In this document: positions 6,484-24,883 of the stretch, piece by piece
How the letters are laid out: each line of letters begins with the position of its first letter
How positions within the stretch are numbered: position 1 is the first letter of the stretch
The notes under the pieces: generated by a model
What the model saw: the letters and a program-made list of their open reading frames with translations, nothing else
Told to the model about the DNA's origin: nothing
Databases searched by the model: none
Translations under genes and position numbers: made by a program
Origin: Candidatus Moraniibacteriota bacterium
GTDB lineage: Bacteria; Patescibacteriota; Minisyncoccia; Moranbacterales; UBA1568
Reading direction: 5' to 3'
Assembly (NCBI GenBank): GCA_016699425.1
Contig: CP064975.1
Span: 258,979-322,978, forward strand
Length of the DNA stretch: 64,000 bases

Positions 6484-6518
6484 AAAATCTCTCCCCCAAC
6501 AGGAGGAGAGATTTTGTT
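6484..6518. terminator. Bidirectional rho-independent terminator hairpin
   Basis: AAAAATCTCTCCCCCAACAGGAGGAGAGATTTTGTT has a perfect 8-bp GC-rich stem with T-runs on both strands. Confidence 0.6.
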
Positions 6519-6623
6519 ATGGCGGGGACGGCGGGACTTACCCCTCCGGGGCATAAACTTCTCGTCCCACCATCGTACCAAAAAATCAAAAACCCGACCG
6601 TAAAGGACGGGCTTTTGATTTTG

Positions 6624-6697: not shown

Positions 6698-6862
6698 ATT
6701 TTCTGAACTCACGACCTACAACCGACAACTCACAACGAGAAGAAATGTATTAAAGCATCGCTCACCGTTGTTGGTTGTTCGTGCTGGGTTATCAGTTTTT
6801 TTGGTACCAGGGGCGAGATTCGAACTCGCGACCCCGGGCTTACTCGCCCCGTACCGAAACAG

Positions 6863-6935
6863 TAGCAGGGGTGGGGATCGAACCCACGACATCAGGCTTA
6901 TGAGTCCTGTGCTCTACCAACTGAGCTACCCTGCC
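6863..6935 (-). tRNA. tRNA with CAT anticodon (elongator Met or Ile2/lysidine type)
   Basis: GGCAGGGTAGCTCAGTTGGTAGAGCACAGGACTCATAAGCCTGATGTCGTGGGTTCGATCCCCACCCCTGCTA forms a standard cloverleaf with anticodon loop CTCATAA and a G1-U72 wobble. Confidence 0.75.
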
Positions 6936-7159
6936 GGAAATGTTTTGGTACGGGGCGAATCCCGCTGCTCCCTGCCTGCCGGCAGGCAGGTAACCAACTG
7001 AGCCCCGCCCGCATGATTCGCTTGCTCATCAAGCGTATCGGGCGGGTACCCTGGCGAGGTTTATACGATGAAACCCTGACCGCGTCGCAAGGCACGGAAA
7101 TAAAGCGAGGAGCGGGGAAGATGCCACAGTATCTGTCACCTGCTGATGGCTATATTTGT

Positions 7160-7233
7160 TGCGGGGGGTGGATTTGAACCACCGACCTCTTGGTTATGAG
7201 CCAAGCGAGCTGCCAGACTGCTCTACCCCGCTG
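7160..7233 (-). tRNA. Initiator tRNA-fMet (CAT)
   Basis: AGCGGGGTAGAGCAGTCTGGCAGCTCGCTTGGCTCATAACCAAGAGGTCGGTGGTTCAAATCCACCCCCCGCAA is near-identical in layout to E. coli tRNA-fMet. Position 1 is unpaired against A72 and the T-loop is TTCAAAT. Confidence 0.8.
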
Positions 7234-7496
7234 TATATGATCTCTAGGAACTTCCGACCACCCTTTAAACTTTTGAGATAGTTTTCCCTCTTTCGCGCTT
7301 CGGTGTAACTCGCATAGTCTTCTTTGTGAACGAGTACCCATTGTTGGTGTCTCTTGGTCCACTGGGAGCGACCCTGATTGTGAGCAGTAATCCTCTCCGT
7401 AACGTCAGCGGAGATACCGATGTACCTGCGCCCATTTTCGGATTGTATTACATAAACGCTGAACGGTAAACTCGTGTCGAGCATAGGGAGTCTCAT
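7194..7496 (-). CDS. Small GIY-YIG nuclease (YhbQ/UPF0213-like) inserted at tRNA-fMet
   Basis: MRLPMLDTSLPFSVYVIQSENGRRYIGISADVTERITAHNQGRSQWTKRH...TEARKRENYLKS carries the GIY..YIG and conserved Arg/Glu motifs. The start ATG lies in a CTCATGAG anticodon-loop mimic of a degenerate tRNA-fMet 5'-half copy (7513-7537). The stop TAA is the TAA of the CTCATAA anticodon loop of the intact tRNA-fMet. The track ORF 7194..7673 is an artefactual upstream extension. Confidence 0.7.
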   Translation of the reverse strand: MRLPMLDTSLPFSVYVIQSENGRRYIGISADVTERITAHNQGRSQWTKRHQQWVLVHKEDYASYTEARKRENYLKSLKGGRKFLEIIYSGVEQSGSSLGS

Positions 7497-7637
7497 GAGC
7501 CAATCCCGCCCGGGCGGGACAGACTGCTCTACCCCGCTGTATATTTGAGAACCTATAACCCACCACCCACAACCTACGACGAGACCTACTTTCTTCTTGC
7601 TGTCGGTTGTTAGTCGTGAGTTGTCGGTTATCTCAAG

Positions 7638-7711
7638 TGGGTGATCATGGACTCGAACCATGGACCTCGACATTATCAGTGTCGCGCTCTAACCACCTGA
7701 GCTAATCACCC
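7638..7711 (-). tRNA. tRNA-Ile (GAT)
   Basis: GGGTGATTAGCTCAGGTGGTTAGAGCGCGACACTGATAATGTCGAGGTCCATGGTTCGAGTCCATGATCACCCA folds as a cloverleaf with anticodon loop CTGATAA. Confidence 0.85.
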
Positions 7712-7956: not shown

Positions 7957-8051
7957 ATGGGGAGTATGTATTATTGTACCGACGAGAACAAATGGCCCAA
8001 AGGCGTATCAATGGCGATTATACGGAAAAATAGAGAGGGTGTCCAGGTTAG

Positions 8052-24709: not shown

Positions 24710-24883
24710 GGAAAAAGAAAGCTCCCGGACCTATCCCTTGCGGGAAAGCGGCGATGAACGCCACAGTTTGGTTCGGGAGCACTTCCACCTATAAAATACG
24801 CTTTGCAGACCGTTTTGTCAACACTGAGTCAGCACTGATGTGGCAGTAAGTGAGCAGTCCAGAGTGGGCTAAAAAATTTGGCT

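Follow-up and report, generated by a model that had tools for sequence, protein, structure and literature searches.

A GIY-YIG nuclease gene inserted in the initiator tRNA gene of a Moraniibacteriota bacterium, a probable homing-type element of bacterial tRNA genes

We analyzed a 64,000-nucleotide stretch of contig CP064975.1 of Candidatus Moraniibacteriota bacterium (assembly GCA_016699425.1, positions 258,979 to 322,978), referred to below as the window, which carries a small GIY-YIG nuclease gene inside an array of tRNA genes. The array is encoded on the minus strand, as are the other features described below unless stated otherwise, and consists of tRNA-Ala, tRNA-Ile, two tRNA-Met(CAT) genes and tRNA-Asp, all called by ARAGORN and Rfam. 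The first gene is tRNA-Ala (7956-7881), preceded by a promoter-like site TGGACA-17-TATAAT (8017-8045) that matches 11 of 12 consensus positions; this site, recognized by the consensus match only, is likely to be the promoter of the whole element-containing tRNA operon. A terminator-like hairpin is located 3' of the array (6515-6484); with a promoter-like site on one side and a terminator-like hairpin on the other, the array from tRNA-Ala to tRNA-Asp looks like a single operon. The nuclease open reading frame (ORF) is embedded in this operon, and it has no promoter, terminator or stop codon of its own.

The ORF (7194-7484, 96 amino acids and a stop codon, delimited by Pfam and by alignment with homologs) lies between tRNA-Ile(GAT) (7637-7711), the upstream neighbor, and the intact initiator tRNA, tRNA-fMet(CAT) (7158-7232). 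This layout is accompanied by a duplication of the 5' part of tRNA-fMet. A repeat search finds an exact 25-nt direct repeat (ATATACAGCGGGGTAGAGCAGTCTG on the minus strand) that comprises 6 nt of the 5' flank and tRNA-fMet positions 1-19. The upstream copy (7520-7544) is the displaced 5' part, and the downstream copy (7214-7238) belongs to the functional tRNA and its flank. An earlier note made from the sequence alone had described this repeat correctly, but had placed the copies 5-7 nt off. The upstream copy is followed by a GC-rich, perfect 16-nt palindrome, TCCCGCCCGGGCGGGA (7504-7519, no strand assigned; the type A hairpin, read from the sequence), which replaces tRNA positions 20-27, and then by TTGGCTCAT (7503-7495), a copy of the 5' side of the anticodon stem-loop up to the anticodon, with which the pseudo half ends. 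This anticodon-arm mimic had been recognized earlier. The two tRNA-fMet copies are identical across the shared 25 and 9 nt.

The 5' 19-36 nt of tRNA-fMet are present twice at the locus. The palindrome disables the outer of the two copies, and the inner one is joined to the original 3' part and forms a fully intact tRNA, so that the essential gene is preserved. ARAGORN and Rfam do not call the upstream pseudo copy, and the gene at 7158-7232 is the sole intact tRNA-fMet. The A1·A72 mismatch, the A11:U24 pair and G30-G31/C39-C40, read from the sequence of this gene, mark it as a bacterial initiator tRNA. The stop codon of the ORF, TAA (7196-7194), lies inside the CTCATAA anticodon loop of the intact tRNA; the resulting overlap of 39 nt between the ORF and the tRNA agrees with the earlier estimate of about 40. 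The C-terminal tail of the protein, YSGVEQSGSSLGS, corresponds to the last 13 codons; the coding sequence of this tail and of the TAA is supplied by the tRNA-fMet gene together with the flank immediately 5' of it. The related proteins P0002 and P0003 end in ..GVEQSGSSxGS because the tail is a translation of the tRNA gene.

The start of the gene required a correction. The ATG of the anticodon mimic had been taken as the start codon of a 100-residue protein. However, 96-residue homologs with 66-70% identity begin with MFDTSLPF.. and align with the next ATG in the window (7484-7482, MLDTS..), and L009, a contig with a 98% identical protein, reads CTCATTGA at the position of the mimic, without an ATG. 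The N-termini of the homologs and the CTCATTGA variant therefore define the gene as 7484-7194, encoding 96 amino acids. The peptide IYSGVEQS indeed occurs twice, as stated earlier, within a maximal ORF of 159 amino acids. The deposited annotation of this metagenome-assembled genome, which has a 1.2-Mb contig, (P0001, 7194-7673) corresponds to a 159-residue GIY-YIG nuclease that starts inside tRNA-Ile and runs across the pseudo half and the palindrome, and many database entries of the family have similar spurious N-terminal extensions of 20-60 amino acids.

The protein matches the Pfam GIY-YIG domain PF01541 at residues 13-79 (52.3 bits versus a cut-off of 22.6, E = 7e-14), and the domain ends at about residue 83. 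The Pfam and NCBIfam searches of the protein found no second domain. A profile search of the Protein Data Bank with the family returned 1zg2 (E = 4.1e-12) and 1ywl (3.6e-11), followed by SLX1 chains; the top solved relatives are the UPF0213 proteins BH0048 and EF2693, in agreement with the YhbQ-like identity proposed in the earlier note. The invariant columns of the family alignment (A1) include Y11, Y21-I22-G23, R31, H35 and E67; we take Tyr11, Tyr21, Arg31, His35 and Glu67 to be the GIY-YIG catalytic positions, an assignment of our own from the sequence. The subfamily is marked by the motif EARKRE(N/I/V)YLKS and is tightly tied to tRNA genes. In a 2006 classification of GIY-YIG proteins, members of the prokaryotic Slx1 family were described as the domain in its minimal form, as a rule lacking auxiliary domains (PMC1564403), and, judged by its sequence, the window protein matches this minimal, stand-alone group. 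The ratio of nonsynonymous to synonymous substitution rates (dN/dS, Nei-Gojobori method) is 0.10-0.14 for the window gene compared to those of L009 and L010, with small counts for the closest pairs, and 0.08 for L011 compared to L002, at a synonymous divergence (dS) of about 1.2. The low dN/dS values indicate that the gene is maintained by purifying selection.

The earlier note had called for a comparison of tRNA-fMet loci in related genomes. A scan of a metagenome collection for the tRNA-fMet sequence gave 20 loci. Four of them (L096, L099, L102 and L091) have tRNA-Ile and tRNA-fMet identical to those of the window, 23-26 nt apart and without an ORF between them; the tRNA-fMet of the window is 100% identical to these empty-site genes. 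In a six-way alignment (A2), the alleles of the window, L009 and L010 correspond to the empty allele with a single contiguous block of 306/307 nt added. The block is made up of the palindrome, TTGGCTCAT, a linker of 10 nt, the ORF and the repeat in its second copy; 291 of the 306 nt are ORF. In the window, the segment missing from the empty sites is 7214-7519, or equally 7239-7544. The spacer between tRNA-Ile and tRNA-fMet found at the empty sites is kept in L009, and the repeat that bounds the block is 21 nt long in L009 and 25 nt in the window. The alignment places the block after tRNA position 19, in the D loop, and not between anticodon positions 35 and 36 as had been suggested; owing to the flanking repeat, the precise point of insertion is formally ambiguous. 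The element is an insertion into the tRNA-fMet gene of a genome of the candidate phyla radiation (CPR).

The same site is occupied by a second lineage of GIY-YIG genes in other contigs. In L090, L094 and L104, a protein that is 33% identical to that of the window is encoded directly 5' of tRNA-fMet; its ORF reads into the tRNA, ending ..KYSGVEQSGSSLGS*, and is preceded by a pseudo 5' half that is broken twice by different palindromes (TCCGCC..GGCGGA and ACCCGCC..GGCGGG). The syntenic contig L002 encodes a 64% identical protein and contains three copies of the tRNA-fMet 5' half, two of which carry the TCCCG..CGGGA hairpin; this arrangement would fit a tandem repeat of the unit from which one ORF was lost. 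GIY-YIG copies are also found elsewhere in the same cluster of other Moraniibacteriota contigs (L102, 1560-1960; L090, 1210-1550; L093, 1660-2011); they precede either tRNA-Asp, with a type C palindrome, or tRNA-Met, where the stop codon is the TAG of U8-A9-G10. Elements of this kind have a hot spot in the Ala-Ile-fMet-Met-Asp operon.

The insert, which had been regarded as a one-off, is one member of a large family found across phyla. The family alignment was scanned against one genome per species, which yielded 80 loci from metagenome-assembled genomes (MAGs) labeled as Patescibacteria, Bacteroidota, Ignavibacteriota, Thermodesulfovibrionia, Omnitrophota, Saganbacteria and others. Some of these labels probably reflect errors of binning; "Bdellovibrionales" for L009 is one such probable case, because that contig is syntenic with the window. 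At 62 of the 80 loci, a tRNA gene on the same strand begins within 60 nt of the ORF stop codon or overlaps the 3' end of the ORF. Assuming tRNA genes to be spaced tens of kilobases apart, we roughly estimate the adjacency expected by chance at well below 1%. The adjoining tRNAs are fMet, Gln, Arg, Ala, Thr, Ser, Leu, Glu, Val and Asp, and at least 30 loci have the stop codon within the tRNA, for example, a TAG formed by U8-A9-G10. A copy of the 5' part of the same tRNA is located upstream of the ORF at 53 of these 62 loci. Such partial copies span from as far as position -11 to between position +15 and the full length of the tRNA, and most of them are interrupted by a GC-rich palindrome in the D, anticodon or T loop; ARAGORN sometimes calls the full-length interrupted copies as tRNAs of 94-96 nt. 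At least eight loci show a mirror layout, in which the intact tRNA is followed by the ORF and then by a displaced 3' part with a palindrome and the native downstream flank; L087, with TCCCGCCGCGGCGGGA, is an example for tRNA-fMet.

In a neighbor-joining tree of the proteins, the clades agree with the isotype of the tRNA as well as with the type of palindrome. The family profile matches 22,902 representatives of 50%-identity clusters at E <= 1e-3 and 5,679 at E <= 1e-10, counts that include all profile matches, whatever their genomic context. The recurring combination of a nuclease gene, an intact tRNA and a copy broken by a palindrome points to a large, cross-phylum family of mobile elements. 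Tandem arrays of the whole unit (tRNA piece, palindrome and ORF) are present at L050, L083, L047 and L002, and four representative proteins (P0012, P0013, P0014 and P0023) contain two GIY-YIG stretches in one predicted ORF; these findings suggest local amplification by unequal recombination between the tRNA-derived repeats.

The palindrome itself, which the earlier note had read as a degenerate D region, is a conserved feature of the whole element family. The palindrome inserts cluster after nucleotides 18-24 of the tRNA (D loop, typically between ..GGTA and GAGC..), after nucleotide 39 (anticodon loop) and after nucleotides 54-55 (T loop). The type TCCCGC..GCGGGA is associated with the protein clade of fMet and Gln, CCCGCCCGAACG.. 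with that of Ala, Thr and Asp, CCTGCCTGCCGGCAGGCAGG with that of Arg, Leu and Phe, and TCCGCC..GGCGGA with that of Glu and Ser. Across related elements, the type A hairpin has a conserved stem and a variable center; between L011 and L002, the stem TCCCG/CGGGA is unchanged and the center differs, despite the dS of about 1.2. CCTGCCTGCCGGCAGGCAGG, a palindrome of 20 nt, is shared by Bacteroidota, Ignavibacteria-type MAGs and the window. The hairpin is always found at the ORF end that faces away from the functional tRNA; it lies whole on one side rather than divided around the ORF, and the length of the repeat varies across loci from 21 to more than 80 nt. Outside the tRNA cluster, the 64-kb window contains none of the three palindrome types and no solo palindromes. 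Since the palindrome types are confined to the tRNA cluster within the window, a dispersed repeat family was ruled out. A role as an intrinsic terminator was rejected as well: the terminator scan calls none at the palindrome, and the downstream tRNA must be transcribed through it. The pseudo 5' half does not fold as a strongly structured leader; the predicted fold is dominated by the hairpin and is not significant overall (z = -1.0). Inspection of the D-loop junction by eye for a CNNNG motif such as that cleaved by I-TevI gave nothing convincing.

Traces of similar events without an ORF are found further along the tRNA cluster. A repeat search and comparison with relatives reveal an older, ORF-less relic of a tRNA-Met of the GCCAGGG type (6802-7055). 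This tRNA-Met is intact in L096, L099 and L102; in the window it is full length but shattered, and lies between tRNA-fMet and tRNA-Asp. The relic consists of tRNA positions 1-9 (7055-7047), a type C palindrome (7046-7004), tRNA positions 10-21 (7003-6991), the type B palindrome CCTGCCTGCCGGCAGGCAGG (6990-6971), the piece GAGCAGCGGGAT (6970-6959) and, beyond an interruption, the old 3' part, which ends in CCCTGGTACCA (6843-6802). The interruption is an 18-nt inverted repeat (6958-6941 and 6861-6844) that encloses an intact, functional tRNA-Met of the GGCAGGG type (6935-6862), different from the relic. From the sequence, it looks as if a foreign tRNA-Met has replaced the resident one and no ORF was left behind.

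A comparable trace accompanies tRNA-Asp (6697-6623). A displaced copy of its 3' end (6512-6538; 27 nt, 89% identical) lies 101 nt downstream of the real gene, together with the native downstream terminator (6515-6484); this terminator is the one that directly follows tRNA-Asp in L099, and the real tRNA-Asp of the window is followed by a different hairpin (6582-6622). The copy thus looks like a relic of a mirror-type, 3'-side insertion. Together with the tRNA-Met relic, it indicates that the tRNA cluster was hit repeatedly. An imperfect inverted repeat of about 80-90 nt (7550-7629 and 6706-6797, with segments that are 70-94% complementary) brackets the block from the pseudo-fMet half to the tRNA-Met relic. 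Its left arm, which is also present in L010, takes the place of the 24-nt spacer between tRNA-Ile and tRNA-fMet of L009 and the empty sites. A DUF3800-IX RNA motif at 24717-24780 of the minus strand (Rfam, 50 bits versus a gathering threshold of 36.8) is unrelated to the tRNA cluster.

The presence or absence of the element in close relatives, the second lineage at the same site and the recurrence at other tRNA genes indicate that the element behaves as mobile. These three observations support the proposal of the earlier note that a mobile nuclease resides at tRNA-fMet and regenerates an intact copy of the gene, with the changes to the insertion site and the start codon given above. The element is composed of a gene for the GIY-YIG catalytic domain of about 83 amino acids, a characteristic palindrome rich in GC and a second copy of part of the tRNA gene that it occupies, and we consider it fairly probable that this is a minimal selfish element that is free-standing, belongs to the homing-endonuclease type and lives in tRNA genes. 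The nuclease would nick or cut unoccupied copies of the cognate tRNA gene, and repair would copy the ORF from the occupied allele, with the tRNA sequences on either side serving as homology arms. The near-invariance of tRNA genes would let these arms function between species as well. The palindrome would travel with the element and most likely stabilizes the insertion: it would break the direct repeat that could otherwise delete the ORF, and would keep the displaced copy from being a target and from competing with the fold of the tRNA. It may also bind the nuclease. Cleavage by RNase P at the 5' end of the tRNA would remove the stop codon from the mRNA, so that the production of the nuclease is probably kept very low.

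It should be noted that several observations weigh against this interpretation. The protein has only the catalytic domain of about 83 amino acids, and a DNA-binding module such as those of I-TevI and Seg is not recognizable in it; characterized GIY-YIG homing endonucleases, such as I-TevI, recognize long sites through such a domain. The nearest relatives are proteins of the Slx1/UPF0213 type. The regenerated tRNA-fMet is the same in filled and empty alleles, so that no immunity of the occupied allele is visible if the target lies within the tRNA; the displaced copy, unlike the regenerated tRNA, is disrupted by the palindrome. Judged from the alleles compared here, the empty sites could be precise deletions between the 21-25-nt repeats and not the pre-insertion state, so that the change may have been either a gain or a loss. 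Close homologs were not found in the phage and plasmid collections (three weak phage matches with 30-36% identity and zero plasmid matches), and a phage or plasmid origin was rejected on this result. Finally, the survey sample was drawn with one motif, [ED]ARKRE[NIV]YL, and represents a subfamily, not all small GIY-YIG proteins.

It is possible, and we put this forward tentatively, that the GIY-YIG genes, the clade-specific palindromes and the tRNA pieces together form a distinct class of mobile elements of tRNA genes across bacterial phyla. Elements of such a class would enter at tRNA loops and carry replacement segments or whole foreign tRNAs, as the tRNA-Met of the window may exemplify. The resident copy would be left disabled by the palindrome, and loss of the element would then cost the cell an essential tRNA, which would amount to a natural "cleave/replace and rescue" drive on the translation apparatus.

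A different mechanism, centered on the palindromes, is somewhat improbable in our judgment, but it is a serious rival because the inserts prefer loops and the tRNA-Met is enclosed by an inverted repeat. Under this mechanism, the element would be a transposable one and the palindromes would be active DNA sites, either element ends or small non-autonomous elements. The Slx1-like nuclease would cut the stem-loop junctions of cruciform or cloverleaf DNA formed by tRNA genes and palindromes, and the palindromes would thereby be mobilized into tRNA loops, with the ORF or whole tRNA genes as cargo. The displaced copy with its palindrome would be a "poison pill", such that deletion of the element leaves a dead tRNA gene. 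The near-exclusive insertion at tRNA loop positions, the co-variation of the palindrome type with the protein clade, the sharing of CCTGCCTGCCGGCAGGCAGG among Bacteroidota, Ignavibacteria-type MAGs and this CPR window, and the presence of the structure-specific nuclease SLX1 among the solved relatives are all compatible with it. The tRNA-Met relic also argues in this direction, as it contains palindromes of both types B and C, and the foreign-type tRNA-Met inside it lies between the arms of an 18-nt inverted repeat that resembles the type C palindrome. However, the ORF is not flanked by split palindrome arms, and where palindromes occur on two sides (L002, L076 and L050) the entire unit is repeated in tandem. 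A target-site duplication of fixed length was not seen, solo palindromes are absent elsewhere from the 64-kb window, and a GIY-YIG enzyme alone is not known to catalyze strand transfer.

A host function is quite unlikely. The gene could encode a domesticated housekeeping nuclease of the tRNA operon, with a role in tRNA or DNA repair or in RNA processing; the pseudo-tRNA and the hairpin would then be a regulatory leader or a cap that stabilizes the mRNA, and the tRNA duplications would be by-products of local unequal recombination. The purifying selection on the ORF and its location within the tRNA operon, without a promoter of its own, fit such a role, and a hairpin at the ORF end away from the functional tRNA could protect the end of the processed mRNA. 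Nevertheless, genomes with identical tRNA-Ile and tRNA-fMet differ in the presence of the element, and this polymorphism, together with a pseudo copy that always matches the neighboring tRNA in place of a conserved leader, makes the housekeeping role unlikely. The different lineages at the same site, the many tRNA isotypes, each with a copy of that tRNA, and the existence of tandem arrays and ORF-less relics argue against it as well. Integrase-mediated integration with the 25-nt repeats as attL and attR, simple tandem duplication and assembly artefact are extremely improbable: the direct repeats do derive from a tRNA gene, the usual target of integration, but the 306 nt between them encode only the GIY-YIG ORF and no integrase, the duplicated part is the 5' and not the 3' end, and the same structure recurs in independent assemblies (window, L009 and L010) and at more than 50 other loci.

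No description of the arrangement of a GIY-YIG gene, a tRNA gene, a pseudo-tRNA and a palindrome was found in the full-text literature, a search whose coverage leaves out most subscription journals, so that a prior description is possible. By analogy, the element is best read as extending to bacterial tRNA genes a familiar arrangement in which an endonuclease ORF comes with a duplicate of part of a gene; that the palindromes and the tRNA replacement set it apart as a new class is a guarded suggestion. If the selfish-element interpretation is correct, many of the small genes annotated as "GIY-YIG nuclease family protein" in Patescibacteria, Bacteroidota and other phyla belong to selfish elements organized around tRNA genes and are not housekeeping genes. 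It would also explain the tRNA fragments and the "intron-containing" tRNA calls beside these genes, the ORFs that run into tRNA genes, the over-extended annotations such as the 159-residue call in the window, and the replacement of one tRNA gene by a foreign copy. A homing-type element would have colonized an intron-less, essential RNA gene without a ribozyme, and the principle of an endonuclease ORF with a duplicated gene end, known from mitochondria, would reach bacterial RNA genes. The nucleases of about 83 amino acids and their palindromes of 16-40 bp would provide a compact system for the study of target choice by Slx1-like GIY-YIG enzymes.

Several known systems share some of these features. 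Like the integrase islands, the element is inserted in a tRNA gene, carries a duplicate that restores the gene and leaves direct repeats; unlike them, it has no integrase, spans 0.3 kb rather than many kilobases and duplicates the 5' part. Integrase islands duplicate the 3' part of the tRNA, and tRNA genes are the usual targets of integrative elements. An integrase island with att sites, as well as an assembly artefact, was rejected on the size and content of the insert and on its recurrence in independent assemblies. The UPF0213/YhbQ/prokaryotic Slx1-like proteins (1zg2 and 1ywl) are similar in size, consist of the domain only (about 80-100 amino acids) and give the best sequence match, but no link of this group to tRNA genes is reported in PMC1564403, whereas the window subfamily is tightly tied to them. 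The free-standing T4 SegB, encoded in the tRNA gene cluster of T4, and I-TevI share the GIY-YIG domain with the window protein, and SegB also the location among tRNA genes; unlike the window element, the Seg/I-TevI systems have neither a duplication of tRNA parts nor palindromes. These enzymes are 200-250 amino acids long, with a C-terminal DNA-binding domain, and are presumed to spread by double-strand-break repair with co-conversion of the flanks.

The initiator tRNA is also the host of a group I intron in cyanobacteria, where I-Ssp6803I, a PD-(D/E)XK enzyme, is encoded inside the tRNA-fMet intron. The window element resembles this system, and collaborative homing, in which a free-standing endonuclease is encoded beside an ORF-less intron, in that the anticodon loop of the initiator tRNA is the target. 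A distant homolog of the window protein (P0011, 40% identity) provides a link to classical homing: in L003, it is encoded just upstream of a tRNA-fMet gene with a group I intron (Rfam, 65.6 bits), which is ORF-less and lies between CTCA and TAA of the anticodon loop. In this region (600-1560 of L003), the GIY-YIG ORF reads through the 5' exon into the intron, and two pseudo 5' halves lie upstream, one of which is broken by four long hairpins; ARAGORN misses this tRNA. The L003 contig comes from another bacterium, and its neighboring genes include that for a BBP2-family product. Unlike the group I intron of tRNA-fMet, the window element keeps the tRNA functional by duplication and not by splicing. 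As the earlier note had held, the window contains no group I ribozyme: Rfam finds none, and the insert is nearly all ORF, on which grounds a group I intron at the locus was rejected.

By analogy, the closest established model is the mobile ORF (mORF) of mitochondria, known from atp6 of Allomyces macrogynus and from atp6, atp9, cox2 and nad3 of Glomus, in which an endonuclease ORF carries a duplicated gene end (PMC3630166). A free-standing LAGLIDADG or GIY-YIG ORF enters an essential gene together with a partial copy that regenerates its function, the displaced native part is kept beside the ORF as a pseudogene, and close relatives differ in the presence or absence of the insert; the mORF may lack a stop or a start codon of its own and be in phase with the host gene (PMC3630166). 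The window shows a similar order of pseudo 5' part, ORF and intact tRNA, and its mirror relatives (tRNA, ORF and displaced 3' part) show exactly the mORF layout. In contrast to the mORFs, the host is a bacterium, the target is a 75-nt tRNA gene rather than a protein gene, and the family duplicates either the 5' or the 3' part. Moreover, the displaced copy bears a clade-specific GC palindrome, and the nuclease consists of the catalytic domain of about 83 amino acids only. The regenerated part in the window is native, undiverged sequence, that is, the copy carried by the element is not foreign for tRNA-fMet; a foreign copy, as in mORFs, is seen at the neighboring ORF-less tRNA-Met relic, where the intact tRNA is of the other sequence type.

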